In this document: positions 1,466 through 61,303 of the stretch, piece after piece
Numbering within the stretch: the stretch's first letter is position 1
Layout: the number at the start of each line of letters is the position of its first letter
NCBI GenBank assembly: GCA_046290225.1
Contig: JBKAGE010000006.1
Span: 1-64,000 of the forward strand
DNA length: 64,000 bases
Source: Bradymonadia bacterium
GTDB taxonomy: Bacteria > Myxococcota_A > Bradymonadia > UBA7976 > UBA1532
Reading direction: 5' to 3'
Program-made: the position numbers and the translations under genes
Notes under the pieces: generated by a model
The model's input: the letters and a program-made list of their open reading frames with translations, nothing else
The model's database searches: none
What the model was told of the DNA's origin: nothing

Positions 1466-2902
<1,437 letters not shown>

Positions 2903-2917
2903 GCAAGGAAGAAACCG

Positions 2918-3691
<774 letters not shown>

Positions 3692-3700
3692 GAGGTCGTC

Positions 3701-5008
3701 ATGGCTGTCGCACGTGATGTGACTGTGAGGGCCGAGGCCCAAGCACACCTGCTGGGCCTGTTTCAGGCCGCCGACGAGCCGCAGTGGCTGCAGGACCGTC
3801 GCCTCGAAGGGGTAAAGGCCCTCGAAGCCACCGGGTTGCCCCAGCGCCGCTCAGAAGACTGGAAGTACACCAACATCGGGCCGTGGCTGGAGACGCGCTA
3901 CGCCCTCGGCGACGGCGCCGGGGTCGACGCCCTGCCTGCAGATCTCGCCCAGGGTGCTCGGCTGGTCTTCGTCGATGGCCGCTTCCGCGCGGATCTCAGC
4001 GATGAGATCTCCGGGGTGACCGCAGGGGCGCTGAGCGCTCATCTCGATCGGCCCGCGGTGCAGGATCACCTCGGCCGCCACGCAGCACCTCAAGGCTTCG
4101 TGGCGCTCAACCAGGGCACCTTCACCGACGGCGCCCTGATCGAGGTGGCCCCGAACACTCAGGCAAGCGCGCCGATCAACCTGGTGCACCTGAGCACCGG
4201 TGAAGGCCGCGCCGCAGGCCTGCGCCACCTCGTGGTCCTCGGCCAGGGCGCCGAGGCGGAGGTGGTGATCCACGAGCGCACCACGGGCAGCGGCCCGAGC
4301 CTCACCCACGTGGTGGTGGAGATCGCCCTGGGCGACAACGCCGGGCTCGAGCTCGTCGATCTGCAAGAAGGTGGCCCTGAGGCATTCTACACCGCCCACA
4401 TGGCCGCCACGCTGGGCCGCGACGCCCGCTTGAGCCGCCGCGCTCTGGCCCTCGGCGGCCGAAGCAGCCGCGCCGAGGTGGTGGTGAACTTCGGCGCCGA
4501 GGGGGGCGAGGCCGATCTCAACGGTCTCTACCTCGCCCGAGGGCGTAGCCATCAAGATCATCACCTGACCCTGAACCACGCCCACTCCCGGTGCACCAGC
4601 GGGCAGCTCTACAAGGGCATCCTCGACGAGCACGGCCGTGGGGTGTTCACCGGCAAGGTGGTGGTGGCGGAGCACACGCACCAGAGCAAAGCGGAGCAGG
4701 GCAACCACAACTTGCTGCTCTCGAACGACGCCCACGCCAACACGCGCCCCCAGCTGGAGATCTACGCCGACGATGTGCAGTGCAGCCACGGCGCCACGGT
4801 GGGCCAGCTGGACGAAGAGGCGATGTTCTACCTGAGGGCCCGCGGCATCGGCGTGGCACGGGCCCGCGATCTGCTGACTTACGCATTCGCCAGCGAGGTG
4901 ATCGGCAACGACGCCACCGGCGCCTGGCTCGAGAGCCGCCTGCTGGGCTGGCTGCCGGGCCACACCGTCGCCGCTGTCGATTTGCATGCGGCCCTCGAGG
5001 AGCTCTGA
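3701..5008 (+). CDS. sufD: Fe-S cluster assembly protein SufD
   Basis: EDWKYT, PQLEIYADDVQCSHGATVG, FYLRARGI; position in suf operon. Confidence 0.95.
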   Translation: MAVARDVTVRAEAQAHLLGLFQAADEPQWLQDRRLEGVKALEATGLPQRRSEDWKYTNIGPWLETRYALGDGAGVDALPADLAQGARLVFVDGRFRADLSDEISGVTAGALSAHLDRPAVQDHLGRHAAPQGFVALNQGTFTDGALIEVAPNTQASAPINLVHLSTGEGRAAGLRHLVVLGQGAEAEVVIHERTTGSGPSLTHVVVEIALGDNAGLELVDLQEGGPEAFYTAHMAATLGRDARLSRRALALGGRSSRAEVVVNFGAEGGEADLNGLYLARGRSHQDHHLTLNHAHSRCTSGQLYKGILDEHGRGVFTGKVVVAEHTHQSKAEQGNHNLLLSNDAHANTRPQLEIYADDVQCSHGATVGQLDEEAMFYLRARGIGVARARDLLTYAFASEVIGNDATGAWLESRLLGWLPGHTVAAVDLHAALEEL

Positions 5009-5010
5009 AG

Positions 5011-6240
5011 ATGAACGCCCCCACCCTGAACGTCGAGGCGATCCGGGCCCAGTTCCCGGTGCTGAACCAAGAGGTGAACGGCCATCCTCTGGCCTACCTG
5101 GACAACGCCGCCAGCGCCCAACGGCCCCAAGCGGTCATCGACGCTCTGGTGGGGTACTACACCCAGGATCACGCCAACATCCACCGCGGGGTACACACCC
5201 TCAGCCAGAGAGCCACCGAGGCTTATGAGCGTGCCCGCATCGTGGTGCAGAAGTTCCTCAACGCCGAGCGATCTTCGGAGGTGATCTTCACCCGGGGCAC
5301 CACCGAAGCGGTGAACCTCGTCTGCGACGCCTTTACGGCGCTCCGCGTCGAGGCGGGAGACGAGATCGTCATCACGGCCATGGAGCACCACGCCAACCTG
5401 GTGCCCTGGCAACAGCTCTGCGCTCGAAAGGGTGCAAAGCTGGTGGTGGCGCCGATCTTCGACTCCGGTGAGCTCGACATCGAGACCTTCGAGCGTCTGC
5501 TGACGCCGAAGGTGAAGATGGCGGCCTTCGTACACGCCAGCAACGCCCTGGGCACCTTGAACCCCGTGGAGCACATGGTGTCCCTCTGTCGCGAGCGTGG
5601 GATCCCCACCCTGCTCGACGGCGCCCAGTGGATCCCCCACGGGCCCGTCGATGTGCAGGCTCTGGGCTGTGACTTCTATGTGTTCTCGGGCCACAAGGTG
5701 TATGGCCCCACGGGCATCGGGGTGCTCTGGGGCAAGCAGGCCCATCTCGAGGTGATGCAGCCCTATCAGCTGGGCGGCGACATGATCGAGACGGTGTCCT
5801 TCGAGAGCACCACCTTCAACGCACCACCGGCGAAGTTCGAGGCGGGTACACCCCACATCGCAGGGGCCGTGGGTCTCGCTGCAGCGCTGCAGTGGTTCGA
5901 GGGGGTGGGCTTTGAAGCTGTGGCTGCCTACGAGTCGATGTTGCTGGCCTATGCCACGGAGCGCATCGGCGCCGTAGAGGGTGTACGGCTCGTGGGCACT
6001 GCACCCAAGAAGGTCTCTGTGGTGTCTTTTGTGATGGACGGCGTGCACCCGAGTGATTTAGGGACCCTCGTCGACCAGCAAGGGGTGGCGGTCCGCACCG
6101 GCCACCACTGCACCGAGCCCCTGATGCACCGCCTCGGCGTGTCAGGGACCGCCAGAGCATCATTCGCCTGCTACAATACCCGGGCGGAGGTGGATCAACT
6201 GGTGGTGGCCCTCGAGAAGGCCCGCCGGTTGTTCCTGTGA
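5011..6240 (+). CDS. sufS: SufS-type cysteine desulfurase
   Basis: YLDNAAS, ANIHRGVH, MEHHAN, SGHK PLP lysine, RTGHHC catalytic Cys; ATG at 5011 after sufD stop. Confidence 0.95.
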   Translation: MNAPTLNVEAIRAQFPVLNQEVNGHPLAYLDNAASAQRPQAVIDALVGYYTQDHANIHRGVHTLSQRATEAYERARIVVQKFLNAERSSEVIFTRGTTEAVNLVCDAFTALRVEAGDEIVITAMEHHANLVPWQQLCARKGAKLVVAPIFDSGELDIETFERLLTPKVKMAAFVHASNALGTLNPVEHMVSLCRERGIPTLLDGAQWIPHGPVDVQALGCDFYVFSGHKVYGPTGIGVLWGKQAHLEVMQPYQLGGDMIETVSFESTTFNAPPAKFEAGTPHIAGAVGLAAALQWFEGVGFEAVAAYESMLLAYATERIGAVEGVRLVGTAPKKVSVVSFVMDGVHPSDLGTLVDQQGVAVRTGHHCTEPLMHRLGVSGTARASFACYNTRAEVDQLVVALEKARRLFL

Positions 6241-6256
6241 GCGTGAGGAGCCAGCC

Positions 6257-6760
6257 ATGAGCAATCTACTCAAAGACATGATCGACCAGGCAACCCAGGC
6301 GGCTGACGAGATGGCCGAGGGCGCGTCGAAGGTCCGTCAAGCGGCTGAAGACGCCGAGACCGCACCGGTGACGCCAGAGCCCCAGGTCGATGATGTGCAC
6401 GGCTGGCCCCCAGAGGCAGCCGCCGAGGTGGTGGCACAGGCGCAAGCACAGTCTGAAGAGGGGCTGCGAGAGCGCATCGTCGACGCCCTCAAGACGATCT
6501 ACGATCCCGAGATCCCGGTGAACATCTACGACTTGGGCCTGATCTACGAGGTGAACCTCGACGAGGACCGCAACGTCGAGGTGATCATGACCCTCACCTC
6601 ACCCCACTGCCCGGTGGCGGAGAGCATGCCCGCCGAGGTCGAAGCCCGCACCCGCCTGGTGCCTGGCACCTCCGACGTGAAGGTGGAGCTCACCTGGGAG
6701 CCTCCCTGGAACCCCGACTCCATGACCGACGAAGCGAAGCTCGAACTGGGGATGTTCTAG
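6257..6760 (+). CDS. sufT: SUF system DUF59/SufT-like Fe-S assembly protein with acidic N-terminal extension
   Basis: DPEIPVNIYDLGLIY, MTLTSPHCP, WEPPW motifs. Confidence 0.88.
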   Translation: MSNLLKDMIDQATQAADEMAEGASKVRQAAEDAETAPVTPEPQVDDVHGWPPEAAAEVVAQAQAQSEEGLRERIVDALKTIYDPEIPVNIYDLGLIYEVNLDEDRNVEVIMTLTSPHCPVAESMPAEVEARTRLVPGTSDVKVELTWEPPWNPDSMTDEAKLELGMF

Positions 6761-7145: not shown

Positions 7146-8348
7146 ATGAAGACAAGAGTCCTCAAAATCATCCTGCCGATCTCGATGCTGCCGTGGGCAG
7201 CTCAGGCTGAGGATCCTGTTGTGCTGCTCAGCGGCGGCTACACATTTACCAGCGTTTGGGGCAGCTCTCCGGGGCACGGGCACGGCTTCGAGCTCAGCCT
7301 GCCCATCTTCCCCGACGACAAGGGCGTTGTCGGTTTCGCGCCACTTCTGCAAGGGCGCTGGCTCGACAATGATCAGGACATGAGCCTCACGGTGGGGGGT
7401 GAGCTGATCGGACCTCTGATCGGGCTCGAGATCGCCCACTCCACGCGCTACCGCGACGGGGTCAAACGCGAGGGGGTGCATCTTGGCCCCTTCATCTCGG
7501 CCTTTGGTGTGTTCAACCTTGCCGGTCGCTTCGTAATGCCCATCGACGAAGGTGCTGGAGAGTATGGTCTGACGCTCAGCATCAAGATCCCTCTGCCTGT
7601 GGCCGGCGAGTTCAACTTCGGCATCGGCGCACCACACGGTCGCCCACTCCGCATCGCAGGTCAGCCGGTTCGCGTTCAGGTGATGTACGGACCCCAGATC
7701 GGCCCTGGTGCCCCGGGGATGTCCGCCGAGATGCGCTGGCGCATTGCTCAGGCATGGATCGAAGATGCACAGATGGAGCATGCTTCGGTGGCGGCCTTTG
7801 ATTTGATTGCTGATCAGCTTGAAGGGCACGGCGCCCCATCAGCCCTCGTGGCCGAGGCCCGCCGCGCAGCCCGTGACGAGGCAGATCACGCGCGACGCTG
7901 TTTGAGCATCGCAGGGGCGCTGTTGGGCCGTCCGGTGTACCTCGCCCCCATCGACGATGCGGTCCTCACCACAGCCCGGGCTTCGATGCCGACGTTGAGC
8001 CAGATGGCCACGGACAGCCTCGAGGAAGGCTGCTTGGGCGAAGCTGTAGCGGCCGCAGAGATCACCTCGGCGGCCTGGCACGCCATGGGCCCGGTGGCGG
8101 CCCACATGCACACCATCGCTGCAGACGAAGCCCGACACGCCCGCCTTTCAGAGGCCATCGTCACCTGGGCCGAGGGGGTGGGTGGTGTTTCGGTCGCCGC
8201 CGCAGTACAGGCCGCTCGTGCCGCGCTCCCTCGACATGTGATGCCCCGTGCAGAGCCTCATGGCGTCACGGCACGAGATTGGGGTCGCCCCACCGCCGAG
8301 GCCCAGGTGCATGCCTTCATGCGTAGGCGCCATCAGCTCACAGCCTGA
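7146..8348 (+). CDS. Exported protein with C-terminal ferritin-like (di-iron) domain
   Basis: Signal peptide; beta-rich N-half; GRPL linker; EHASVAAF, DEADH, EEGCLGE, DEARH carboxylate/His motifs. Confidence 0.75.
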   Translation: MKTRVLKIILPISMLPWAAQAEDPVVLLSGGYTFTSVWGSSPGHGHGFELSLPIFPDDKGVVGFAPLLQGRWLDNDQDMSLTVGGELIGPLIGLEIAHSTRYRDGVKREGVHLGPFISAFGVFNLAGRFVMPIDEGAGEYGLTLSIKIPLPVAGEFNFGIGAPHGRPLRIAGQPVRVQVMYGPQIGPGAPGMSAEMRWRIAQAWIEDAQMEHASVAAFDLIADQLEGHGAPSALVAEARRAARDEADHARRCLSIAGALLGRPVYLAPIDDAVLTTARASMPTLSQMATDSLEEGCLGEAVAAAEITSAAWHAMGPVAAHMHTIAADEARHARLSEAIVTWAEGVGGVSVAAAVQAARAALPRHVMPRAEPHGVTARDWGRPTAEAQVHAFMRRRHQLTA

Positions 8349-8451
8349 TCGCAGCCGTCTGTTCACCTTCATTTGAGGTGATCCCTCACAAAACGCTCGC
8401 TGTCGTGTATCCCAGAGAGGTGGCAACACCGAAATCATGGGAGGAGGCGCG

Positions 8452-9711
8452 ATGTCGGCATCTGACAACGAGTATCTGCAGCAAGTCATCGTGAACAAGG
8501 CCGAGGTGGAGCGAGGCCTGAAGTCTCGCCGCAAGGCCCAGTCGTTCATGCCCGAGCAATCGATGGCATCACCGGCAGGCGGCCTCGGCGCCGACTTCGA
8601 CGATGGCCCTGCCGTCGACGTGCGCGTCACAGGCGCTCTGTGGTGGAAGAACGTCGTAGTGCCACCGAACGCCTTTGTGGTGCACACACGTCGGGGCCAT
8701 AATCAGCCACTCCACGTCGGGCTCGGGGTCTCGTTCAAATACAACCCCCGCACCGACGCGTTCCTCGTCGTGCCTGCGGCCATGCAGACCATCATCCTCA
8801 ACGCCAACTGCATCTGTCAGGAGCGACAGGGGATCCTGGTGCAAGGATACGTGCAGTGGGTCATCGACGACTTCGAGCTGGCATACCGCCGGCTCGACTT
8901 CAGCGACGTCTATGATCCGATGAAGGTGGTGAACATCCAGCTGAGGGAGCAGGCAGAGGCGGCCATCAAGGACACCGTGGCCACCATGAGCATCGACGAC
9001 GTGCTCGCGGACAAACAACCCATCATCGAGGTGCTCACCGCCCGACTGCGGAAGGTGGCAGAGGGCACCAACAACGACGAAGGCCTCGGGCTGCGCATCG
9101 TCACCGTGCAAATCAAAGAGGCGGTCATCAGCTCATCGAGGCTGTGGACCGATCTCCAGCGCCCCTTCCGGGCTCAACGGCGCAAGACCGCCCGCCTCGC
9201 AGAGCTCGAAGCCGAGGGCGAGATCAGCGCTCGGGAGGACGAAGCGGCCCGCCTCACCGCCGAGCAGGAGATCGCCCGACAGTCCGCCATCGCTCAGAGC
9301 CGCTCGAAGGCAGAAGCAGACGCCTTCGATCGTCAAATCGCCGAGCGCACGCGTCGATCCGAGCAAGAGGCTCAGCTCGCAGCCGAGCAGGCGGAGCGAC
9401 AACGCATCATCATCGAGCAGGAGTCCGCCGTGGCCCGCCTCAAGGCCGAGGCGGAGCAGCTCCTGGCGCGCCTCAACGCTGAGACCGAGGCCCTCGTAGC
9501 CGAGAGGCGCCTCGCGGTGGAGGCCCAACAACAGAAGGTGCGCAACGACATCTCACCTGCACAACTGCGGGCCCGGCTCATCGAGCAGCTGCCCGAGCTG
9601 GTCAAAGACATGCCTCAACCAGAGAAGCTCACCGAGATCCGGACCGGAGGAGAGGGGCTCACAGGGCCCGTGGCGGGGCTGGTGGGGCTGCTAAAGTTCC
9701 TCGACGGTTGA
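8452..9711 (+). CDS. SPFH/flotillin-family protein
   Basis: SPFH-like core (VQWVIDD, AIKDTVATMSIDDVL, GLRIVTVQIKE) then Ala/Glu coiled coil; GGAGGAGG RBS. Confidence 0.85.
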   Translation: MSASDNEYLQQVIVNKAEVERGLKSRRKAQSFMPEQSMASPAGGLGADFDDGPAVDVRVTGALWWKNVVVPPNAFVVHTRRGHNQPLHVGLGVSFKYNPRTDAFLVVPAAMQTIILNANCICQERQGILVQGYVQWVIDDFELAYRRLDFSDVYDPMKVVNIQLREQAEAAIKDTVATMSIDDVLADKQPIIEVLTARLRKVAEGTNNDEGLGLRIVTVQIKEAVISSSRLWTDLQRPFRAQRRKTARLAELEAEGEISAREDEAARLTAEQEIARQSAIAQSRSKAEADAFDRQIAERTRRSEQEAQLAAEQAERQRIIIEQESAVARLKAEAEQLLARLNAETEALVAERRLAVEAQQQKVRNDISPAQLRARLIEQLPELVKDMPQPEKLTEIRTGGEGLTGPVAGLVGLLKFLDG

Positions 9712-10251
9712 TCACTCTGCTGCGGCGGGGGGCAACAACACTGTGTCGATCACGTGGATCACGCCGTTCCCGGTGGTGATGTCGGTCATGGTGACCGCAG
9801 CGCCGCCTACAGTGACGTTGCCGTCGGCGTCGACCTCCACCGCCAGCTCGCTCCCCTGAAGGGTGGTGATCGACGACATGCCCACGACGTCAGCCGCGGT
9901 CAGCCGCTCGTCCACCACGTGGAAGGTGAGCACGTTGGCCAACGCAGCTTCGTCATCGAGCAGGCCCTCGAGGGCTCCGTCAGGTAGATCACCGAAAGCA
10001 TCGTTCGTCGGCGCGAACACCGTGAAGGGGCCTGCCCCGCTCAGCGTACCGTCGAGCTTTGCCGTGGTGACCGCAGTCACAAGAGTGCTGAACTGGTCAT
10101 CGCTGGCCGCAGCAGCCACCACGGTGGCGGGGCCTTGCTCTTCTTCCATGGCCGGCGTCGACTCTTCGTCGTCACCCCCACAGCCGACAGCGGTCATCGA
10201 AATCAGGGCGCACAGGGCCACGCGAATCCAACGATTCTTGAGCAAAGTCAT
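9712..10251 (-). CDS. Fasciclin (FAS1) domain lipoprotein
   Basis: Lipobox AVGC; GPFTVFAPTNDAF (H1) and NGVIHVIDTVL (H2). Confidence 0.93.
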   Translation of the reverse strand: MTLLKNRWIRVALCALISMTAVGCGGDDEESTPAMEEEQGPATVVAAAASDDQFSTLVTAVTTAKLDGTLSGAGPFTVFAPTNDAFGDLPDGALEGLLDDEAALANVLTFHVVDERLTAADVVGMSSITTLQGSELAVEVDADGNVTVGGAAVTMTDITTGNGVIHVIDTVLLPPAAAE

Positions 10252-10309
10252 CGTCATACTCCAATGTGTTCCATCCCTCGGAGCGTCTCTCTCGAGGGTC
10301 GACCTCTTG

Positions 10310-10336
10310 GACACGACGCGATCACAAAACCGCAAA
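10310..10336 (-). promoter_or_regulatory. Putative ECF sigma promoter TTTGCGG-N15-GTGTC upstream of fasciclin gene
   Basis: Same two boxes and 15-nt spacer as the motif upstream of the ECF gene (11140-11166). Confidence 0.6.
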
Positions 10337-10387
10337 CCGACCTTCAAAAAAATGTGAGTAGCAACAAAATACCCGCGGATTCCGGGC

Positions 10388-10906
10388 TCAGGGGAGCAGG
10401 AGCGTCCTCACGGGGTTGAGGGTGCCGTTCTGCGCCGTGATCGTGATGTCGCTCATCCGGCGCACTTGCGGTGCTGGCAGCGTGGTCTCGGCGAGGGTCT
10501 CCATCGATTTGCTGCTGCCCTTCGGCACGGTGCCGAGCACCACATGACGCGCCACCACCTGATATGCCCACTGGGGCTCGTCTCTCAAGCGGACCAGCAC
10601 CTCGGTGGGCAGCGCCTTGAAGGCGTCGTTCGTCGGGGCGAGCACTGTGTAGGGCCCGTTGTTGTCGAGGATCTCGTCGATCTCGGTGCGCTTCACCAGG
10701 TCGTTCCAGATCGACAGCTCAGCGCGCTCGGCGAGGGTCTCGTTGAGATCAGCCACCCTGTCACCGGGCTGATCCCAGGGGCCACGCTCGGCGCTGAGTA
10801 CCGGCAGCGCCCCAGCACCCCAGCGGGCTTCTTTTTGCGGGGTGCAGCCCCACGCGAGCAATACAGAGGTGACGATGAACGATGTGTGGACAACTCGGGA
10901 CGACAT
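10388..10906 (-). CDS. Second, more divergent fasciclin-domain lipoprotein
   Basis: Lipobox AWGC; GPYTVLAPTNDAF; NGTLNPVRTLL. Confidence 0.82.
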   Translation of the reverse strand: MSSRVVHTSFIVTSVLLAWGCTPQKEARWGAGALPVLSAERGPWDQPGDRVADLNETLAERAELSIWNDLVKRTEIDEILDNNGPYTVLAPTNDAFKALPTEVLVRLRDEPQWAYQVVARHVVLGTVPKGSSKSMETLAETTLPAPQVRRMSDITITAQNGTLNPVRTLLLP

Positions 10907-11139
10907 GGTGCCCTCTCCCTGAGGCCGCTGACCGTGCGGCGCACCCTTGAAGCACGTCGTTCGACGCGCTGCAGATGAGCACGGGCCTCGGGGAGACTCA
11001 GTGAGCTGACCCAGCGCTCAAGGTTCGACCACTCAAAAAACATCACCTGTGGAGCGTCCACGGCCTTCGCTTTGTATCTGGAGATCAGAAGGCCGGTGTC
11101 GCGTCTTCTGTTCGAAATCACATCCATCACATCGGTGGT

Positions 11140-11166
11140 TTTGCGGATCTGCAGCCATCGGGTGTC
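11140..11166 (+). promoter_or_regulatory. Putative autoregulatory ECF promoter TTTGCGG-N15-GTGTC
   Basis: About 45 nt upstream of the ECF start; matches motif at 10310-10336 on the minus strand. Confidence 0.6.
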
Positions 11167-11209
11167 TACCTCACAGAGCGGCCAGCGCGCCGAGAAACGC
11201 AGCGAGTAC

Positions 11210-11776
11210 GTGGTGAACGCCCCCCGAAACCCGAGACCATCCACCGCAGGGCCGATCGATCTCGATCAGCTCTACCGGCAATACGCCGGAGCGGTCCGTC
11301 GACGCGTCCGGCGGTTCTTCGGCGCCGACGAGAGCGAAGAGGTGGTGCAGGAGGTGTTCTTGAAGGCGATCGAGCGCATCGACAGCTTCAGAGGTGACTC
11401 GTCACCAGTGACCTGGCTCTACCGCCTCGCCACCAACCACTGCCTCAACCGGCTGCGTGACCAGAAGCGACAGCGCGCGCTGCTCGACGCTCATGCGCCA
11501 GTGCTACGCCGTCGACAGGTGACCCGTGCCACCCCCGAAGCGGCGCTGTTCATCGAGTCGCTGTGGCGTCAGCTCGACCCTACGCTGGCTCAAGTGGGGC
11601 TCTACTACTTCGTCGACGGCATGACTCAGGTGGAGATCGCCCGGCTCATGGGCGTGGCCGAGCGCACAGTGGGATACCGCTTGCGCAAGCTGCAATCCAT
11701 GGCCCGCGCAGCGGCAGAGCCCGCGCCGCCACCCGCAGCTTCAGAGGCCGCCGAGACGAACGCGAGGAGGATGTGA
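11210..11776 (+). CDS. ECF RNA polymerase sigma-70 factor (start codon uncertain)
   Basis: Region 2 EEVVQEVF...[21 protein letters not shown]; region 4 [18 protein letters not shown]. Confidence 0.93.
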
Positions 11777-12663
11777 TGGACCGGCCCGAGGGCGTCGGTA
11801 CAGACCCGTTGGCTCTGACCGACGCAGTGCAACCAGGGGCAGACCTGCTCACCTGGGATGGGCACCTGACTGATCTGACGATCGAGCGCGTGCTCTGTGC
11901 TGACTTGAACGCTCAAGAGCAGGCCGTGGTGCGGACGCACGTGCAGAGATGTGACGACTGCGCTGCAGATCTGCAGGCCATCGCCGAGGACGAGGGTTTG
12001 TCAGACGCCTCGCTGGTGAGCTTGCTCGGTGAAGCAGATACAGCCTCGACGGCGAAAGCCAGCGCTCCCCCTGCGACCACCCAAGGCAAAATCCTGGCAT
12101 TTCCCACAGTGGTGTTGAGCAGCCTCGCGCTCGCCGCGGCGGCCGCCCTGGTGTTGTGGATCACCCCTGGAGGGCAACCCACGACCGGGCAGCCGATCGA
12201 TCCTTCTCTCTCTGATCACATCGTACTCAAGGGCACCGACTTCGAATGGGAGGTCCACATCCACGACGGGTCGAGCGCCCAGCGCGCCCGTCACAACCAG
12301 CACGTGCGCCCTGGGGATCGCGTGGGTTTCAAAGTCTTGAGTCGCAAGGGTGGACACCTCGCCATCCTCGGCGTGGACGCCTCTGGCGCCACATATGTGG
12401 GCTACCCCCAAGGCAAGGCCCGCTCGGCACCGCTCTCTGCGGCAAAGGCCTTGAGCGACCTGCCCGACGCGCTGCGGTTCGACAGCGCCGGGGATCACGA
12501 GCGCCTCGTGGCGCTGCTCTGCCCGGCGCCTTTCTCCCTCGAAGAGGCACAGCGGCGTCTCGGCGAACGCGCCCACACGACATCTGATGCGCCGACCCCC
12601 TTGATCTGGCGCCAGTGCGACCAGAAAGAGCTGCGGCTGCGCAAGGGGTCGACACCCCAATGA
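11776..12663 (+). CDS. Zinc-binding (zf-HC2/ZAS) membrane anti-sigma factor with extracytoplasmic DUF4384-like domain
   Basis: HVQRCDDC (HxxxCxxC), single TM helix (LALAAAAALVLWI), LKG...VRPGDRVGF; TGATG coupling to ECF. Confidence 0.82.
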   Translation: MDRPEGVGTDPLALTDAVQPGADLLTWDGHLTDLTIERVLCADLNAQEQAVVRTHVQRCDDCAADLQAIAEDEGLSDASLVSLLGEADTASTAKASAPPATTQGKILAFPTVVLSSLALAAAAALVLWITPGGQPTTGQPIDPSLSDHIVLKGTDFEWEVHIHDGSSAQRARHNQHVRPGDRVGFKVLSRKGGHLAILGVDASGATYVGYPQGKARSAPLSAAKALSDLPDALRFDSAGDHERLVALLCPAPFSLEEAQRRLGERAHTTSDAPTPLIWRQCDQKELRLRKGSTPQ

Positions 12664-14228
12664 AGCTCTGGCTGCTCGCCCTCTCTCTTCTGGCCTTCGA
12701 GCTGATCGGGCCGGCGACGGCAGCGCCAGTCCGTTATGCCGTGGTCATCGGGGCCAACTATGGCGATCTCAGTGATCCACCCCTCACCTACGCAGAGCAC
12801 GACGCCGCTCGGGTGGCCGAGGTGCTGGGACGCCTCGGCGGGGTGGATCAAGAGCATGTCATCTTGCTCCGCAGCCCCACGGTCGGTGAGGTGGATCGGG
12901 TCATGTCCGGCCTCGGTGCCCGCATCACGGCGGCCCGCGCCGCCGGTGACGAGCCCGTGCTCTTCGTCTACTACAGCGGCCACGCCGACGCTGGCGGCCT
13001 GCACATGGGTGGCGCTCACCTGAGCTTTGCCCACCTCAAGGAGATGGCCACCGCGGCGACGCCGGAGGTCTCGGTCTTCATCGTGGACGCCTGTCGCTCT
13101 GGAGGGCTGACCCGCGTCAAGGGCGCGATGCCTGCGGATCCCTTCGAGATGAAGGTGGAGGATCGCCTCGACAGCGCCGGCGTGGCCATCATCACCAGCT
13201 CCGCCGTCGATGAAGAGGCCCAGGAGTCGGAGCGCCTCAAAGGCGGCGTCTTCACGCACCATCTGCTCAATGGGCTGCTCGGCGCCGCCGACGCATCTCG
13301 GGACGACGTCATCACCCTGAGCGAGGCTTATCGCTACGCGTATGCCCAGACACTCCGGGCCACGAGCAGCACCCGCTATGTGCAACATCCCACCTACGCA
13401 TTTCAGATGCGCGGCCGCGAGGAGCTGGTGCTCACCCGACTCAGTGGTCGGGCCGGTTTGGGTCGTATGCGCTTCCAGTCTCCAGGTCGGTACGTGGTGC
13501 TCGGAGACACGGAAGGCCGCATCTCCGAGCTGATGACCGAGGGGCCCACCGACATGCTGGTGAGCGCAGGGGGCTATCTGGTCCGCCGACGCGGTTCAGA
13601 AGCTGTTTACGAGGCTCAGATCGACATCCCCAGCGGCGGCGTCGGGGTGGTTCAGGCCGATCGCATGAGCCGCCGGCCCTATGGCCAGACCGTACGCAAG
13701 GGCACCCTCGATCGAAGCTATGTGATGAGCGTCTCCGGCGGCGCCGAGATCGGTGCGGCCCCCCTCGACGGCCTGTCGACGGGTCTATATGGCACCTTGG
13801 GGCTTCAGCTCGACCTGCAGTCGGTCACCCTACAGGGCCGCCTGCGATACGGCGCCACCGAGGGGGCGAATGCCGATCTCGCCCTCGCTCAGCAAGCGTG
13901 GGGGCTCGATCTCGGCGCGTACAAAGTGTTCGACGTGATCAGCAATGGTGGGTTCAACCTCGGCATGGGCCTCGGCGTGCGTCTCGGAGCTGATCTGCTC
14001 ACCCAACGCTTCGCGGGCTCTGCAGAGGCTGACGATCGACAGCAGGTCACGGCACGGGCTGCCCCTGTAGCCCGCTTGGAGATCGCACCCACAGCGGGCC
14101 TGCTCGGTACCCTCGACTGCGGTGTGGACACCTGGCTCATCGCCCGCCCCATCGATACAGGCGCTGAGCGCTACGACGTCACGCCAACCCCTTTCTGCAG
14201 CCTCGGGCTCGGGATCTATCTGCCATGA
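12660..14228 (+). CDS. Exported caspase-family (peptidase C14) protein with C-terminal beta-strand-rich, possibly outer-membrane, domain
   Basis: Signal peptide; RYAVVIGAN, FVYYSGHA (His), IVDACRSG (Cys), GGVFTHHLLNGLLGAAD; ATGA overlap with anti-sigma. Confidence 0.88.
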   Translation: MKLWLLALSLLAFELIGPATAAPVRYAVVIGANYGDLSDPPLTYAEHDAARVAEVLGRLGGVDQEHVILLRSPTVGEVDRVMSGLGARITAARAAGDEPVLFVYYSGHADAGGLHMGGAHLSFAHLKEMATAATPEVSVFIVDACRSGGLTRVKGAMPADPFEMKVEDRLDSAGVAIITSSAVDEEAQESERLKGGVFTHHLLNGLLGAADASRDDVITLSEAYRYAYAQTLRATSSTRYVQHPTYAFQMRGREELVLTRLSGRAGLGRMRFQSPGRYVVLGDTEGRISELMTEGPTDMLVSAGGYLVRRRGSEAVYEAQIDIPSGGVGVVQADRMSRRPYGQTVRKGTLDRSYVMSVSGGAEIGAAPLDGLSTGLYGTLGLQLDLQSVTLQGRLRYGATEGANADLALAQQAWGLDLGAYKVFDVISNGGFNLGMGLGVRLGADLLTQRFAGSAEADDRQQVTARAAPVARLEIAPTAGLLGTLDCGVDTWLIARPIDTGAERYDVTPTPFCSLGLGIYLP

Positions 14229-15412
14229 CACGCATCTCGTTGAAGGCGATTTCTCTGGCCATGGTGCTCGCGGGCTGTGGCGATCCGCTCGAAGACGCCA
14301 GCTACCGCGGCGAGCCCCTCCTGGTGCTTCAAGGCGAGGTTCGGGTACAGAGCACCGGCCTCACGGTGGACGAGGTGGCCGACTTGCCACAACCGGCCTC
14401 GGGCACGCTGCGAGTGGCCCTCTTCTGGTCCCGAGCGGCAGAGGCAGCGCAGCAGGTGAGCCTCATCGAGCAACAGGCGGTGACCACGTCGCGGTTCCCC
14501 GCCCGCTATGCCCTCTCCTTGTATTCGCCGCCGCCGATGGAGGTGATGGTGGAGGCGCCAGAGGGCAACGGTGAGGTCGCGGTGGGTCTGCTGCTGGTCT
14601 ACATCGACGCCAACGAAGACGGCCGCTGGGATCCGGCGACGGACAGGCTGGTGGGGGGCGCCCGCCAACGCGCCCTGGTTTACACCCCCAGCGGGGCGTC
14701 GAGCCCTTTCTTCGGCGATCTGCAGCCTGGTTACCACCGCGTCCGCACCGCCGCCGACGGTCGCGCCTGCTTTCAACAAGCGCACACCGACTTTCACAGC
14801 GAGACCGACAACGAGCTGCCGCTCTACATCGACATGACGTTCCCCACTCAGGTGCTCATCGATCTCGACTGCGACGGACACCACCTCGAGTGGTCATCGA
14901 TCTGCCCGAGCCCCGAGGCCCTGGCCTTGCAATGTCAGGGCACCGATCGCACTGGGGATCTGGTCTGGCAGTGTGGCACGTGCCCTCAATCCCCGCTCAC
15001 TGACATCTGTCCGCCCCCGACGACCCTGGTGACCGAGTGCCCAGGCCTCGACCCCATGCTCTGCGACGCGTGCCCCCGAGAGCCAGATCCCCAGCTCGAC
15101 TGCGAGCCGGCCTTCTCCGAGTGCCGCTCGGCACAACCCGAGAGCCCCCTGTGTGAGGGCGAATTAGCGATCTGTGTCGACGAGCTGAACGATCCGGTGC
15201 GCTGTCTGGACTATGCTGATGCCTGCTTCGCGGCCCCGGACCGCCAGGGTGCCTGTCTGCGCTTCTTCACCACATGCCACGAGGCTGCGCTGGGGGTGCC
15301 GCCCACCTTCGGAGCGACGTGCCGTTCGATCGGGGAAACGTGTTTGCAGCAGGGCGGTGAGATGGAGGCGTGTCGCCAACGCTTCGAGCGCTGTGCGCAG
15401 AGCAACGGCTGA
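14225..15412 (+). CDS. Lipoprotein with Cys-rich C-terminal half
   Basis: Lipobox LAGC; DANEDGRWD Ca-binding-like motif; many Cys; ATGA overlap with caspase gene. Confidence 0.8.
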   Translation: MTRISLKAISLAMVLAGCGDPLEDASYRGEPLLVLQGEVRVQSTGLTVDEVADLPQPASGTLRVALFWSRAAEAAQQVSLIEQQAVTTSRFPARYALSLYSPPPMEVMVEAPEGNGEVAVGLLLVYIDANEDGRWDPATDRLVGGARQRALVYTPSGASSPFFGDLQPGYHRVRTAADGRACFQQAHTDFHSETDNELPLYIDMTFPTQVLIDLDCDGHHLEWSSICPSPEALALQCQGTDRTGDLVWQCGTCPQSPLTDICPPPTTLVTECPGLDPMLCDACPREPDPQLDCEPAFSECRSAQPESPLCEGELAICVDELNDPVRCLDYADACFAAPDRQGACLRFFTTCHEAALGVPPTFGATCRSIGETCLQQGGEMEACRQRFERCAQSNG

Positions 15413-15506: not shown

Positions 15507-16202
15507 CTACATCCGCGCCACGGCGGTGATCATCTCTTCGATGACCCCTTCGTCGAGGGGGGCGTTCCGCCACCACCTGACCTGACCCTCACCGTCGACC
15601 ACCAGGAACAGTGGTAGACCCATACCCGCCCGCTCGATGAGACTTCGGGGAGTGAGCTTCACGTGGGCTTCGTCGCGTTGCCACAAGGGGTAGACCCACT
15701 GCGGCGCCCGGGGATCAGCCTTCACCTTCTTGAGATCGTCGACGGCCATACTCACCAGGGCGCCGTTCACCTGCTCGAGCTCGATCTGCAGCTGTTTGAG
15801 GTGGGCGAGCTCCTGTGGGGTCGTACAGGGCTTGCACCATGTGGCCCAGAAGGCCAGCACCACCCCTCGGGGGCGGCCGAGATGCTGCATGATCTTCTGC
15901 TTGCGGCCACGATCAGAGGTATGGGCCACCAAGGTGGCCTTGCCCAGATCGACCCGACCATGGTCGAGGGGCTTGAGCGATACGGGGCGGAACGGCGCCA
16001 TGCCTGCCCGCTGCTCTGCGAGACGTAGCCGATCTTTGAGGGCGGACATCTCTCCGCTCATCTTCTGCAGCTGGCCATTGAGCTGCACCACCTGCTGCTC
16101 AAGCTGGGCCTTCTGCCGGCGCAAAACCTCGCCCTCCCGGCTCTGAGCCGGGCCACCACACGCGATCAGGCACAGGGCGAGGGCCGCTGACAGAGCGCGC
16201 AT
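15507..16202 (-). CDS. TlpA/ResA-like thioredoxin-fold lipoprotein with N-terminal coiled coil
   Basis: Lipobox LIAC; FWATWCKPC; GLP cis-Pro loop; TGATG overlap with upstream OmpA gene. Confidence 0.82.
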   Translation of the reverse strand: MRALSAALALCLIACGGPAQSREGEVLRRQKAQLEQQVVQLNGQLQKMSGEMSALKDRLRLAEQRAGMAPFRPVSLKPLDHGRVDLGKATLVAHTSDRGRKQKIMQHLGRPRGVVLAFWATWCKPCTTPQELAHLKQLQIELEQVNGALVSMAVDDLKKVKADPRAPQWVYPLWQRDEAHVKLTPRSLIERAGMGLPLFLVVDGEGQVRWWRNAPLDEGVIEEMITAVARM

Positions 16203-17008
16203 CAAAAGACTGCGTCGTCAGATTCGTAGCAGGGGTAGGCGAAAATGAGGGCGCTGCGGTTGGCCTGCTTGGTGCTCAGGCGCTTGTTGGTGAGCCGCTC
16301 CACATCGAGGTCGGTCAGGTACATCTTGCTGTGACCATAGGTGATGTAACCCACCTTCGTCTTGTCGAGGCCGATCTGACCCACCATGTACTGGCGGGTG
16401 TGCTCCGCGCGCTTGAGGGCAAGCTCGAGGTTCTTGCGCCACGGGCCGTCCTTGCTGGCGCGGCCCACGATGATGACGTAGCCCTTCTCGCCCCGCAGGT
16501 TCTCGATGAACCGCTGCATCTGGGCTTTGTCCGTGGCGTCGAGCTTGGTGCCGTTGGCGGGGAACGTGATCAATGTGTGGGGCAGCCGCCGGGTGAGCAG
16601 CATGTACTGATCACGGCTGATCTGCTCTGCCTGATCGACCTGCTTGCACATGCCCTGATGGCAGGCGCTCACCACCTCGTTGACGTGCTTGACGAACTCT
16701 TCCTCGCTGCAGAACGCCTCACGGGCATAAATGGCCCGAGCGTGGATCTCACAGGCGTGATGATCGGGGTAGTCGGCGCAGATGGAGGAGAGCCGCCGCT
16801 TCTGATCGTCGAGCTGGGTCTGGGTGCTCTGCAGCTGCTCGGTGGCGTCGAGGAGCTCCCGGGTCTTCTCTTCGTACTGGACCTGGGTGATCTCCTGGTT
16901 GTCGGCATACGGATCATCCTCAGGGCCCGTCTGGGCCCCGCCACAGGCGCTCAGCCCGAGGGCGGCGAGGGTGCATGTGATCGAAATGCGTGCGCGCGAG
17001 TTCAGCAT
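16202..17008 (-). CDS. OmpA-like (peptidoglycan-binding) domain lipoprotein
   Basis: Lipobox LSAC; VGRASKDG...NLELALKRA...NRS. Confidence 0.78.
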   Translation of the reverse strand: MLNSRARISITCTLAALGLSACGGAQTGPEDDPYADNQEITQVQYEEKTRELLDATEQLQSTQTQLDDQKRRLSSICADYPDHHACEIHARAIYAREAFCSEEEFVKHVNEVVSACHQGMCKQVDQAEQISRDQYMLLTRRLPHTLITFPANGTKLDATDKAQMQRFIENLRGEKGYVIIVGRASKDGPWRKNLELALKRAEHTRQYMVGQIGLDKTKVGYITYGHSKMYLTDLDVERLTNKRLSTKQANRSALIFAYPCYESDDAVF

Positions 17009-17135
17009 GAGGGCTCCCGCTGATGAGGGGTTTGCCTCGATTAGCGCTGAAACAGCGGTGGGGGTCAATCTTTGGGGGACTCAGGTGGGTAAAGAGGCCC
17101 GCTCTGTCGGGTGAGGGCCTCTCAAGACGCTGGGC

Positions 17136-17909
17136 TTACTCGCCCTCGGTCTTCTCCTCTGCGGGGGCGGCCTCTTCGGCCTTCTCGGCAGGTGCGGCCT
17201 CGGCGGGCGCAGCCTCAGCAGCCTTCTCTGCAGGTGCGGCCTCGGCTGCCCCCTCTGCGGGCGCAGCCTCTTCGCCAGCGGGCGCAGCTTCCTCAGCGGG
17301 CGCGGCCTCAGCGGGTGCAGCCTCTTCAGCCTTCTCGGCTGCAGCCTCTGCAGGCGCGGCCTCTTCAGCCGCAGCGCCGGCCTCGGCAGGGGCATCGCCA
17401 GCGGCCTCGGCGGGGGCCTCTTCACCCTCCGCGTCGGCCTCTTCGCCCTCGACCTTGCCCTTGATCTTCACCCGACCTTCGGTCTCCTCTTTGACGCGCT
17501 TTTTGATACGCCGCTTCCGCTGCTTGGCGGCGGCCTTCTTCTTACCCTTCTTCGTGGCCCTCTTCGCGGCCTTCGCGCCCTTGTTGGCGGCGATGGCCCT
17601 CTGAGCTGCGGTGCGGGCCTTCTTGGTCATGCTCATGGCCACCTTGCCGTTGCCCTTCTTGAGGGCGGCGCGGGCTTTCGCCTGAGTCTTCACAGCTTCG
17701 GCGAGGGCGCCCTTGGCCTTGCCACCCTGGGCCACGGCCCTCTTGGCGTCCTTGATGATCGACTGGGTCTTGTCGATCTGGGCCCTGGGGGCCTTGAGCT
17801 TGGCATTGCCTCGCTTGGCCCGCTGCATCTGGGGCTCGGCAGAGGCCGACATCGGGGCCACAACGAGGCCCGCGGTCATCAGAAAAATCAGCGCAAAAAT
17901 TCGGCGCAT
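17136..17909 (-). CDS. Exported protein with Lys/Arg-rich N-half and Glu/Ala/Pro-repeat acidic tail
   Basis: Signal peptide ending ASA; GAGGAG RBS; EAAPAE repeats. Confidence 0.75.
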   Translation of the reverse strand: MRRIFALIFLMTAGLVVAPMSASAEPQMQRAKRGNAKLKAPRAQIDKTQSIIKDAKRAVAQGGKAKGALAEAVKTQAKARAALKKGNGKVAMSMTKKARTAAQRAIAANKGAKAAKRATKKGKKKAAAKQRKRRIKKRVKEETEGRVKIKGKVEGEEADAEGEEAPAEAAGDAPAEAGAAAEEAAPAEAAAEKAEEAAPAEAAPAEEAAPAGEEAAPAEGAAEAAPAEKAAEAAPAEAAPAEKAEEAAPAEEKTEGE

Positions 17910-50187: not shown

Positions 50188-50865
50188 TCAGAGCGACGAC
50201 GTGGTCAGCCACTGATTGAGCAGGACTCGATCACCCTCGGTGAGCGCATCGACCTGACGGCGAATACGCTGGATGCGGCGGTGCACCGTGCTTCGGTTCA
50301 CCCCACGGTGACGCGCCATCTCGGCGCCGCTGCCCATGGCGAGCAGCGCCTGGAGGAACTCGATGTCCTTCGGAGGCATGTCCACCTCGGGCAGCGCCCC
50401 TTCGTCGAGCTGCTCAAGCTGGGCCTGAGCCTGACGGCGGTGCCGGTTGCGCTCGACCGCCTCAAGGACGGCGCGCTCGTCGAAACCGCGGTCCTGTGCG
50501 CGGATCAGACGCTCCGGCTCAGTGTTCGACATCGGCTGACGGGCCTGACGCTTCGCCCGGTGGAGCAGCGAGCGGAAGGTGATCACCCGGATGAAGCGCA
50601 TGAGGCCCTCGAGGGTATCACCGCGGTAGTTCAAGATGCCTGGCTGAGCGCCCTCGCGGGCAGAGAGCAGCTGGCAGAACACCTCGGAGGCTGCGTCTTC
50701 CCAATCGTCGGGACGCAAACTGCTGGAGAACCGCGCCCGACCGATGGCCTCTGCCGTGCGCACGGTGTGATCGAAGAGCACGCGCCAGAACTGGCGGGCT
50801 TCAGGCTCGCTGCGGCGGGTGACGAAGCGACGCAGTTGATCATGACTCAGCGTGATCTCAACCAT
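50188..50865 (-). CDS. Divergent ECF-type sigma factor-like protein
   Basis: DWEDAASEVF region-2-like; GAEMARHRGVNRSTVHRRI HTH; GGAGGAG RBS; overlaps upstream gene. Confidence 0.62.
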   Translation of the reverse strand: MVEITLSHDQLRRFVTRRSEPEARQFWRVLFDHTVRTAEAIGRARFSSSLRPDDWEDAASEVFCQLLSAREGAQPGILNYRGDTLEGLMRFIRVITFRSLLHRAKRQARQPMSNTEPERLIRAQDRGFDERAVLEAVERNRHRRQAQAQLEQLDEGALPEVDMPPKDIEFLQALLAMGSGAEMARHRGVNRSTVHRRIQRIRRQVDALTEGDRVLLNQWLTTSSL

Positions 50866-51292
50866 CGTTCTCCTCCTTCCCCTGGCGCAGAGGGCCGTTG
50901 CCGATCGACGTCGTCGTGCCCGGAGGCGTCAGCGGACCGTTACCGATCGACGAAGTCGACCCGGGCGGGGCCGTCTTGGAAGAGCTGGTCACCTTCAGAG
51001 CCACGCCAGGATCAGAGGGCCTGAACTCGAAGGGGCCCTCTTCGTCGGCGTGATCGATGCTCATCACGTGGACGCAGAGCTGCTCGTGGCAGTTGAGTCG
51101 ATACACATCCCAGAGCCAGCCCTCGGCGGTAAAGACCTCGATCTCCACCACCGACGTCGGGGCGTTGATCACCTCGAGGATCACCTCTTCGGTCTCCGGG
51201 GCAGACGACGGGCCGGGATCACATCCCAGAAGCGCAGCGCCCATCACGATGGCCCACAGGGGGGCACAGATGTTCTTGAGCGTGTTGTGCAT
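50858..51292 (-). CDS. Small lipoprotein with duplicated C-terminal 14-aa motif
   Basis: Lipobox LLGC; PPGSTSSIGNGPLT/PPGTTTSIGNGPLR; GAGGGAG RBS. Confidence 0.7.
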   Translation of the reverse strand: MHNTLKNICAPLWAIVMGAALLGCDPGPSSAPETEEVILEVINAPTSVVEIEVFTAEGWLWDVYRLNCHEQLCVHVMSIDHADEEGPFEFRPSDPGVALKVTSSSKTAPPGSTSSIGNGPLTPPGTTTSIGNGPLRQGKEENDG

Positions 51293-51363
51293 GACTCCCT
51301 CTTTCACTCCCTCTTATTCTTGCGGTCTGGCAGATGGTGGGCCGAACTTAAATATCGTGCGTC

Positions 51364-51981
51364 TCAGAACGCGGAGCCCCTCTGTCGCAGCACGGCAAGA
51401 TCATTGTCCTGGTCGATGAACGTCTCCAATTGCACCACCAGGGGGTTGGGATAGGCCTCGCGGATTCGGGTCAGCAAGGCATCTGCTTCATCTTCTTCGC
51501 CGAGGCGCAGCAAGCAGGCCAGCACGTTCCCCAGAGCCTGGGCCGAGCGGACCAGCTCGAGAGAGCGCGAGTATTGCTCGAGCGCCTCTTCGTACCTCTC
51601 CATCAAGAAAGCGATGGCCCCTCGATGGCGCGCGAGGGCCGCCAGCGTGTGGCGGCGCTCGTCGTCGTGCTCGAGGCACAGGGCCTCGTATTCGAGCTCA
51701 CCGGCATAACGGCAAGCGGCCTTGAAGGCCTTGAACCGCGGTGAGGTGCTCACGACGCACAGCATCGAAAGCGCCCGGGGCCGATGGAACAGACCGGCGG
51801 CCTCTGCAGCGGCGATCCGTCGCTCCAAGGCGTCGATGCTCGCCCCCTCTTCTGCTGCGGCCAGAATGGCCGAGGCCTCTTCACGGGCGCCCTCAGGCAT
51901 GTGCTCGGTGAAAGCCTGAGTCACGTACGCTTCTTCTTCCAGTTGCTGGAAGATGCGTTCGAACAGCAGAGAGCGATCCAT
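51364..51981 (-). CDS. Cytoplasmic TPR-containing protein
   Basis: HRGAIAFLMERYEEALEQYSRSLEL, GNVLACLLRLGEEDEA, terminal DNDLAVLR. Confidence 0.72.
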   Translation of the reverse strand: MDRSLLFERIFQQLEEEAYVTQAFTEHMPEGAREEASAILAAAEEGASIDALERRIAAAEAAGLFHRPRALSMLCVVSTSPRFKAFKAACRYAGELEYEALCLEHDDERRHTLAALARHRGAIAFLMERYEEALEQYSRSLELVRSAQALGNVLACLLRLGEEDEADALLTRIREAYPNPLVVQLETFIDQDNDLAVLRQRGSAF

Positions 51982-59459: not shown

Positions 59460-59495
59460 GCGGACGACCGTGCCTTTGGCACCGTCGTCCGCTCA
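59457..59495. repeat. REP-like palindrome, copy 2, spanning both convergent stop codons
   Basis: TGAGCGGACGAC-C-GTGCC-TTT-GGCAC-C-GTCGTCCGCTCA. Confidence 0.85.
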
Positions 59496-60293: not shown

Positions 60294-60297
60294 CACT

Positions 60298-61134: not shown

Positions 61135-61303
61135 GATGGGGTTCCGTGAGTGGTCTGGCGCTGTCATAGGCAACGGCGGCGCGGTATCGATCCTTCACCT
61201 GATCGTACAGCGTGTTCGGATTGTTCGTGCAATGCGTTCGGATCGAGTTGAGCGCACAGCATGGACCCCGCGATGCATTCGTTTTATGGACCAGCCTGTG
61301 CCC

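Follow-up and report, generated by a model that had tools for sequence, protein, structure and literature searches.

A caspase-family protease with a predicted outer-membrane barrel, encoded with an ECF sigma factor and its anti-sigma factor in a Bradymonadia bacterium, as a candidate site-1 protease

In the DegS/RseA/RseP pathway a single-pass anti-sigma factor receives a site-1 cut and is then cut by RseP, and signaling of the Fec type has an outer-membrane partner. Caspase-fold proteases have also been connected with sigma factors. A survey of 2012 (Asplund-Samuelsson et al., PMC3501461) reports sigma-70/metacaspase operons for four of the five metacaspases of Myxococcus xanthus and further ones in Anaeromyxobacter, Haliangium, Sorangium, Ralstonia and Fibrobacter; what is said here of this and the other cited papers holds for their accessible parts. 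The linkage of sigma factor and metacaspase is thus already known, and the close precedents are craspase and DdvA. In the DdvS/DdvA system of M. xanthus, a periplasmic CHAT domain is proposed to be the site-1 protease, and a truncated DdvA devoid of the periplasmic domain is cut by RseP (PMC11506125). In craspase, Csx29 cuts Csx30 between the sigma-binding part and the C-terminal domain, which is DUF4384 in one orthologue group (10.1101/2022.08.17.504292; PMC10028731), and the PCaspase of Haliangium, itself activated by a cleavage, acts on a sigma factor (PCc-sigma) and an inhibitor (PCi), both of which it cuts (10.1101/2023.06.23.546230). This report concerns a stretch of 64,000 nucleotides from a Bradymonadia bacterium (contig JBKAGE010000006.1 of assembly GCA_046290225.1, positions 1 to 64,000; hereafter the window), focusing on an operon for a sigma factor of the extracytoplasmic function (ECF) class, an anti-sigma factor, a caspase-family (C14) protease and a lipoprotein, and on two fasciclin-domain lipoprotein genes, FAS1a and FAS1b, that face it.

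The four genes are a real module, frequent among myxobacteria and beyond chance, since their order recurs as a full paralogue on another contig of the source genome (C8) and in most of the 80 relative loci examined. As to its function, it seems fairly probable from the sequences that the protease is a tethered zymogen which, once cut at K154/G155, would cut the anti-sigma factor at K152/G153, that RseP would complete the release, and that the sigma factor would then transcribe the operon together with FAS1a. The module would thus be a variant of regulated anti-sigma proteolysis, of a mechanism not described in the literature found.

The genes overlap stepwise, by TGATG at 11774-11778 (ECF/anti-sigma), ATGA at 12660-12663 (anti-sigma/C14) and ATGA at 14225-14228 (C14/lipoprotein), just as an earlier reading made from the DNA letters (the sequence-only reading) had described. 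The ECF gene (11210..11776, plus strand, with a GTG start at 11210 or 11213) encodes 188 amino acids with sigma regions 2 and 4 only, which places it among the ECF factors (Sigma70_r2, 4.7e-17; Sigma70_r4_2, 3.1e-6; TIGR02937 above cut-off). The anti-sigma gene (11776..12663, plus strand) encodes a cytoplasmic HxxxCxxC domain, one membrane helix and a periplasmic DUF4384-like domain, an architecture which that reading had likewise recognized. The protease gene occupies 12660..14228 on the plus strand (PF00656, 3.7e-13), and the lipoprotein gene, at 14225..15412 on the same strand, encodes a beta domain and a tail of CX6C repeats with no Pfam match. FAS1a (9712..10257, minus strand, start possibly at 10251) has a fasciclin domain (PF02469, E 9.2e-39) and, by eye, a lipobox-like AVGC, and FAS1b (10388..10906, minus strand) is a lipoprotein gene whose fasciclin domain is degenerate, because only positions 2-80 of the 123 of the profile are matched (PF02469, 5.3e-14). 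Both were correctly foreseen as divergent lipoprotein genes; they stand head to head with the ECF gene across a gap of 303 bp.

The conservation of the cassette, which had been proposed for survey, is extensive. Scoring of 8000 candidates gave 1137 protease homologues at E <= 1e-20, and the named ones are mostly from Myxococcota. A scan of genome contigs with the single protein as query found no match, and an alignment-based scan (one genome per species) gave 509 stretches, the best 80 of which constitute the relative loci of this report. An ECF gene is present in 64 of the 65 loci with at least 1700 bp of upstream DNA and an anti-sigma gene in 62, and 68 of the 74 loci with at least 600 bp downstream have a homologue of the lipoprotein on one side or the other of the cassette. 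With the lipoprotein as query, 23 of 151 genomes of the phylum were matched, and cassette genes lie within 1.5 kb in 24 of 28 such loci from other genomes, the remaining four being the weakest matches. Within the same family, 15 of 18 genomes have protease homologues, in 1-6 copies each. The anti-sigma alignment as query gave six proteins only, with no useful names, and a plasmid collection gave only four weak partial matches. In the source genome itself (8.6 Mb, 99% complete), the C8 cassette (57673-62071) is led by a gene for a very acidic lipoprotein-like protein, and its anti-sigma factor is devoid of both zinc cysteines. Two further cassettes of ECF, anti-sigma and barrel-type caspase genes are found on C34 (367900-372970) and C79 (152716-159953), with differing C-terminal regions and with genes for a vWA-like lipoprotein and a large repeat protein as neighbors, and the other two PF00656 genes of the genome, on C78 and C62, also adjoin ECF/anti-sigma pairs. 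An apparent fusion of protease and lipoprotein in one reading frame of a relative locus (L035, 5911-8544) was rejected as a probable frameshift artefact located in the last strands of the barrel. Ten loci (L005, L008, L026, L043, L050, L057, L059, L064, L067 and L081) come from records titled Enterobacteriaceae or Enterobacterales that carry a cassette of myxobacterial type; these titles of assembled bins are probably wrong labels.

The protease is characterized by an intact active site and a beta-rich C-terminus. The motifs YSGH108 and DAC145RSG are present, and H108 and C145, the His-Cys dyad of C14B peptidases, are invariant in 119 homologues; a signal peptide is indicated by hydrophobicity in 115 of 118 homologues and by an N-terminal helix in the model, so the enzyme looks exported and intact as had been claimed. 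D48 and D143 are also invariant in the 119 homologues, and D48 aligns with the aspartate of the metacaspase NDA motif. In metacaspases, two aspartates of the S1 pocket bring about specificity for a basic residue at P1 (PMC6426788). By a residue mapping from alignment, D48 and D143 would occupy these Arg/Lys-accepting positions, and the acidic pocket fits a predicted cleavage after Arg or Lys. An EF-hand-like loop is found at 211-222 (D211, D215 and E222). An AlphaFold2 model built on the 119 homologues (predicted local distance difference test, pLDDT, 89.7; predicted template modeling score 0.84) begins with the N-terminal helix and a caspase domain (23-260), continues with a PEGA-like sandwich (267-331) and a short helix (341-347), and ends in eight long strands (354-520). 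The caspase domain resembles procaspase-7 (Z 19.1, root mean square deviation 3.0, 209 residues aligned), and the eight amphipathic antiparallel strands of the predicted structure match OmpA (E 1.2e-7), OmpX and NspA in a range of E from 1e-7 to 2e-5, that is, a barrel of the OmpA/OmpX type. In addition, PEGA and OMP_b-brl are the look-alikes of the C-terminus in Atlas, and PF13505 is present in one homologue. The C-terminus had been described simply as beta-rich, which is true, but that it is predicted to form an outer-membrane barrel was missed.

Barrels of the OmpA/OmpX/NspA class have both termini in the periplasm and a lumen too narrow for a passenger. Because of this, the caspase domain should hang in the periplasm, and the modeled protease is probably periplasmic and tethered to the outer membrane by its barrel. 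The order of an N-terminal passenger, a short helix and a C-terminal barrel, the many glycines on one strand face and the clusters labeled Autotransporter among the weaker Atlas feature matches (0.88-0.90) could also suggest an autotransporter-like protein that presents its caspase domain at the cell surface, or sheds it from there, to act on outside substrates such as prey, biofilm or surface proteins. This is very improbable, as eight strands matching OmpA, OmpX and NspA, with their periplasmic termini and narrow lumen, speak for the periplasm, and as surface display would leave a conserved motif of the anti-sigma factor unexplained.

The anti-sigma factor has the zinc motif H55-xxx-C59-xx-C62 that is characteristic of zinc anti-sigma factors and that is found in 43 of 49 relatives, followed by a single hydrophobic segment (residues 111-129). 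Its own match to DUF4384 (PF14326) is weak (E 0.002, 18.5 bits vs a cut-off of 27) and zf-HC2 gave no match, and these domains are matched by 37 (E <= 0.01) and 27, respectively, of 68 aligned relatives; the family profile matches ChrR (E 1.5e-6), RsiW and the N-terminus of DdvA (E 0.003). Cys249 and Cys281 are invariant and would fit a periplasmic disulfide.

The motif in question is a basic residue followed by glycine. In 71 anti-sigma rows (this operon and 70 of the 80 loci, 10 being dropped because their genes were not extractable whole), Lys stands at position 152 in 50 cases and Arg in the other 21, so that a basic residue is found in every row, the next residue is Gly in 66, and the residue two before is Arg in 58. 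The predicted cleavage site of this operon's anti-sigma factor is V150-L-K152/G153 (12223..12234, plus strand), against a family consensus of R-x-K/R-G. The word R-x-[KR]-G is found in 57 of the 71 anti-sigma factors vs 12.8 in shuffled sequences, and it is not above chance in the lipoproteins (5 of 59, shuffled 4.2) or in the ECF factors (17 of 71, shuffled 16.0). It lies 7-44 residues (median 14.5) past the membrane helix in 68 of the 71 rows. The protease has two such sites of its own. R152-V-K154/G155 (13113..13124, plus strand), in the loop after the catalytic Cys, is invariant in the 119 homologues, lies in a region of pLDDT <50 at 150-154 and is the predicted activation site, and V345-R346-K347/G348 (13692..13703, plus strand), just before the barrel, is a candidate release site or barrel plug in which R346, K/R347 and G348 are each conserved in 70 of 71 rows. 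All four barrel-type cassettes of the source genome have a K-G or K-A version, and the anti-sigma factors of C34 and C79 have K-G after the membrane helix. Furthermore, two RseP-family loci above the TIGR00054 cut-off are present in the source genome; a regular-expression search for site-2 proteases had found none, and it was the family search that found these two. The sequence-only reading had taken the caspase to be a dedicated site-1 protease or sensor. The conserved motif points to the anti-sigma factor as the substrate, and the cutting itself remains a prediction.

Another possibility is signaling by contact, as in FecA/FecR/FecI: the barrel would be a receptor, the caspase or PEGA part would touch the anti-sigma factor, the cuts would be made by housekeeping proteases (Prc and RseP), and the dyad would serve self-maturation only. 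The layout is the same, namely an outer-membrane barrel with a periplasmic N-terminal domain, a single-pass anti-sigma factor and an ECF factor, and the two basic-Gly sites of the protease itself could explain why the dyad is retained. This explanation is nevertheless quite unlikely. It leaves the basic-Gly motif of the anti-sigma factor, kept in 71 of 71 rows, unexplained, and a plugless barrel of eight strands is unlike the TonB-dependent receptors; the anti-sigma family, too, matches DUF4384 and zf-HC2 and in no case FecR.

Caspase-fold proteases of the CHAT type are also found beside anti-sigma factors in the source genome, which has 11 CHAT matches. Five ECF/anti-sigma pairs, most of them beside TPR-CHAT genes and with an xRG-like word past the membrane helix of the anti-sigma factor, lie on C40 (105241-109624), C38 (285017-292103), C78 (360875-367056), C68 (13056-17659) and C55 (56575-58149). 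By eye, the anti-sigma factors beside the TPR-CHAT genes of C40, C38 and C78 show xRG after the membrane helix, and those of the genome with no caspase-fold gene nearby mostly have no basic-Gly word. The same cleavage logic may hold for the CHAT proteases at these pairs.

The output of the module was approached through its promoter. The same two-block word, TTTGCGG-N15-GTGTC, was first spotted by eye ahead of the ECF gene (11140..11166, plus strand) and ahead of FAS1a (10310..10336, minus strand, about 55 bp before the start), and these are the predicted ECF promoters of the operon and of FAS1a; the former is bipartite and precedes the sigma gene itself, as an autoregulated ECF promoter would. 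A scan of the region for sigma-70-type promoters found none. Because a shared word spotted by eye is circular on its own, a motif was learnt from the relatives, using the noncoding DNA upstream of 65 relative operons with the source genome excluded; its width and two-block shape were fixed after sight of this operon's word. A first search, in 330 bp ahead of each ECF gene, returned nothing but coding repeats, as that stretch is often occupied by another gene. Masking of genes solved this: three of 12 refined seeds, with the three best likelihoods, reached one motif, tTgCC-N15-G.gTC.aAc, which is present in about three quarters of the 65 loci. With this relatives-only matrix, the site of the operon ranks first (20.4 bits) among 17.2 million positions of the genome; among 4229 upstream regions FAS1a ranks fifth and the C8 operon 13th, and the best site of FAS1b reaches only 6.9 bits. 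A sub-matrix restricted to the 10 relative sites whose -35 word has G at its variable place, a choice guided by this operon, places the operon first and FAS1a second, and the matrix from the other 24 relative sites places FAS1a 91st; FAS1b has no good motif upstream, at ranks 343 and 124.

The -35 word appears to be related to the sigma factor. Residue 151 (region 4.2) tracks it in 36 rows, that is, 35 with a site of at least 15 bits and the C8 paralogue at 13.2 bits: Arg goes with TGCC in 19 of 19, and other residues go with other words in 16 of 17. The promoter of C8 is of the variant TTTGCCA...GTGTCACAC, which also precedes several genes on C41, C63, C37 and C78 whose products look exported. 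The motif ranks and the tracking of residue 151 make it probable that these sigma factors read the motif and that, in this genome, this ECF copy has FAS1a among its targets.

The sequence-only reading had named FAS1 adhesins as the output by analogy with SigK-RskA of mycobacteria. For FAS1a this agrees with the promoter motif, and FAS1b, which has none, falls outside it. A conserved linkage of the SigK-RskA kind is contradicted by the relatives: a fasciclin gene is found in none of the 80 loci, 59 of which have at least 3500 bp upstream, with the control on the window's own locus detected, so FAS1a is a local target only. It has to be considered that both fasciclin genes are chance neighbors and the FAS1a motif a coincidence, an alternative which concerns the output only and which is rather unlikely but not negligible. 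Besides the empty loci and the lack of a motif at FAS1b, PF02469 gave no match in G004, G006, G008 and G013, the relatives with the closest cassettes, and the fasciclin genes of relatives (21 partly redundant open reading frame rows) have no motif, reaching at most 5.2 bits. On the other side, FAS1a ranks fifth by a matrix blind to this genome and second by the sub-type matrix, its score was reached by only four of 5000 resampled controls, and in its site it shares TGCGG with this operon, where the C8 paralogue has TGCCA. In one relative locus (L032, position 4535, minus strand) a second motif of 16.7 bits faces a divergent gene for a lipoprotein of 470 amino acids, in parallel to FAS1a.

The lipoprotein has its lipobox Cys18 in 56 of 56 rows and consists of a conserved beta domain (about 30-230) and a variable tail with six CX6C repeats (model pLDDT 78). 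No named family was found for the beta domain in Pfam, Foldseek, VIA or Atlas: Foldseek gave no match at E <= 0.001, the best being a pilotin at 0.017; the VIA search, which barely covered the beta domain, had its best match (Z 7.5) on the helical tail only; and the matches in Atlas were limited to unnamed clusters of Myxococcota and, below threshold, YscW or Ig-like rows. The same CX6C repeat as in this tail is found in an acidic lipoprotein-like protein that is often encoded, in the relatives, by the first gene behind the promoter; at least three repeats are present in 12 of the 24 listed. The lipoprotein of this operon may be a ligand or modulator of the protease, as the sequence-only reading proposed; what the loci show is its tight linkage to the cassette.

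Taken together, the proposed pathway would run as follows. Held by the barrel, the caspase domain would face the periplasm as a zymogen until a signal from the cell surface or envelope activates it by the cut at K154/G155; the gate for this signal may be the co-encoded lipoprotein, or calcium acting at the EF-hand-like loop 211-222. The active protease would cut the anti-sigma factor at K152/G153 to remove the DUF4384-like domain, RseP and cytoplasmic proteases would then finish the release, and the freed sigma factor would transcribe its own operon and a few genes for exported lipoproteins, here including FAS1a.

A number of points weigh against this pathway. The anti-sigma factor of this very operon has Val in place of the family Arg at -2, the helix that holds the K347/G348 site is ordered (pLDDT 97), which is not what an exposed cut site would look like, and a related anti-sigma factor on C55 has an RG motif with no caspase-fold gene adjoining. 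The barrel ends in YLP and not in the usual terminal Phe; an aromatic residue is found among the last four in 88 of 119 homologues. Likeness to the query decided which 80 loci were taken, and a single genome contributes several of them. Regarding the promoter, the co-variation with the sigma factor has just four independent pairs on the protease tree (31 rows), all agreeing (p 0.125), and genome-wide the matrix gives 22 matches at 12 bits vs 20 for the antisense and 11-17 for shifted spacers; because the matches do not exceed these controls, a wider regulon is not callable. The choice between Lys and Arg covaries between anti-sigma factor and protease in a plain count (Fisher p ~0.001), but this vanishes on the tree (independent pairs p = 1).

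The failure of that co-variation would also suit a protease that is the output and not the trigger, that is, one which is induced by the sigma factor and processes or sheds surface lipoproteins or remodels the envelope, while the anti-sigma factor senses alone and its motif is the structural beginning of the DUF4384-like domain or a bait restraining the protease. The protease gene does lie inside the sigma-controlled operon, the motif runs directly into the first strand of the periplasmic domain, and PCaspase is broad in specificity and its inhibitor is also cut (10.1101/2023.06.23.546230). Such an arrangement is unlikely, however, as the motif is not enriched in the lipoproteins encoded alongside and is mostly missing, by eye, from anti-sigma factors with no caspase-fold gene nearby and is present as xRG beside the TPR-CHAT genes.

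The last point against the site-1 pathway is one of distance: the predicted site in the anti-sigma factor is about 15-25 residues away from the inner membrane, and an enzyme tethered to the outer membrane would get there only by release or by a long reach. Release at K347/G348 would solve this. In such an elaboration, which is conceivable but doubtful, the barrel-tethered zymogen would be a surface receptor, the signal would expose both K154/G155 and K347/G348, the freed protease would cross the periplasm and cut the basic-Gly site of the anti-sigma factor, and in the several such channels per myxobacterial genome a single residue in the recognition helix of the sigma factor, by setting the -35 word, would prevent crosstalk. 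If true, this would be a caspase-driven pathway from outer membrane to promoter whose first cut uses neither TonB nor a general envelope protease.

Some other features of the window are described here. A terminator-like hairpin lies between FAS1b and the FAS1a promoter (10371..10387, minus strand), although its weight is low, with four such hairpins in the region vs 2.2 in shuffles. The stop codon of an SPFH/Band 7 gene (8437-9711) directly abuts that of FAS1a with no gap, and beyond it a gene at 7146-8348 encodes a protein that looks exported, its N-terminal half rich in beta structure and its C-terminal half ferritin-like (Rubrerythrin E 0.046). Among upstream regions, the second-best promoter motif is that of a similar ferritin-like gene on C82. 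By eye from the translations, a SUF-like iron-sulfur assembly operon is found at 1466-6760. Downstream of the module, convergent genes at 15507-17909 encode a thioredoxin-like lipoprotein, an OmpA-family lipoprotein and an exported protein that is Lys-rich and then Glu/Ala-rich, and at 50188-51981 there is a divergent sigma-like gene with genes for a small lipoprotein and a helical protein upstream.

What is added to the known systems is the promoter motif and the FAS1a link. MPT70 and MPT83, which we take to be fasciclin proteins, are the nearest parallel on the output side. Mycobacterial SigK-RskA controls mpt70 and mpt83, and the accessible part of that paper mentions no protease partner (PMC7509140); the fasciclin link is conserved there and is seen here in this genome only. 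In the ECF classification, group ECF216 of the Myxococcales, which has a zinc-finger, single-helix anti-sigma factor at +1, is a loose fit by description only, has no conserved promoter, and the word caspase does not occur in the parts of the main text and supplement accessible (Casas-Pastor 2021, PMC7826278). A literature search that left most subscription papers outside found no barrel-anchored C14 protease with an ECF/anti-sigma pair, and for a possible link to the act operon (ActD) of M. xanthus it gave no paper.

The operons of the 2012 survey share the metacaspase and the sigma-70 factor with this one, and the accessible part of that paper names no anti-sigma factor, barrel, lipoprotein, cleavage site, promoter or mechanism (PMC3501461). 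PCaspase, too, is a C14 enzyme of a myxobacterium, its gene accompanies one for a sigma factor, and cleavage activates it, but it belongs to a type III CRISPR cascade, has broad specificity, and no export signal or barrel is mentioned in the accessible text (10.1101/2023.06.23.546230). Craspase shares with this module a caspase-fold protease and a cut in the linker of an anti-sigma factor, which is shown there and predicted here. However, its protease is of the CHAT type, is switched by target RNA via Cas7-11 and cuts after Met427, with no membrane helix or barrel in the accessible description, while the enzyme here is of the C14 type, with predicted Lys/Arg specificity and a predicted periplasmic location (10.1101/2022.08.17.504292; PMC10028731). 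DdvS/DdvA also comprises an ECF factor, a single-pass zinc anti-sigma factor and a caspase-fold His-Cys domain in the periplasm, but there the TPR-CHAT part lies inside DdvA itself, whereas here a separate C14 protease sits on a barrel and the anti-sigma factor of 295 amino acids has no CHAT domain; DdvS controls a CBASS/CRISPR island, and no defence genes are seen beside this operon (PMC11506125).

If the proposed pathway is true, a large share of these proteases would be envelope signaling enzymes and not cell-death proteases, and the site-1 step, so far no more than a proposal for DdvA, would be provided by them. As testable handles there are three predicted sites of cutting, the consensus of the promoter, a candidate sigma residue for promoter choice and one named target gene. 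Unlike DegS/RseA/RseP and FecA/FecR/FecI, the proposed site-1 enzyme would be a caspase-fold cysteine protease on a small barrel, encoded in the same operon as the sigma factor and anti-sigma factor it serves.

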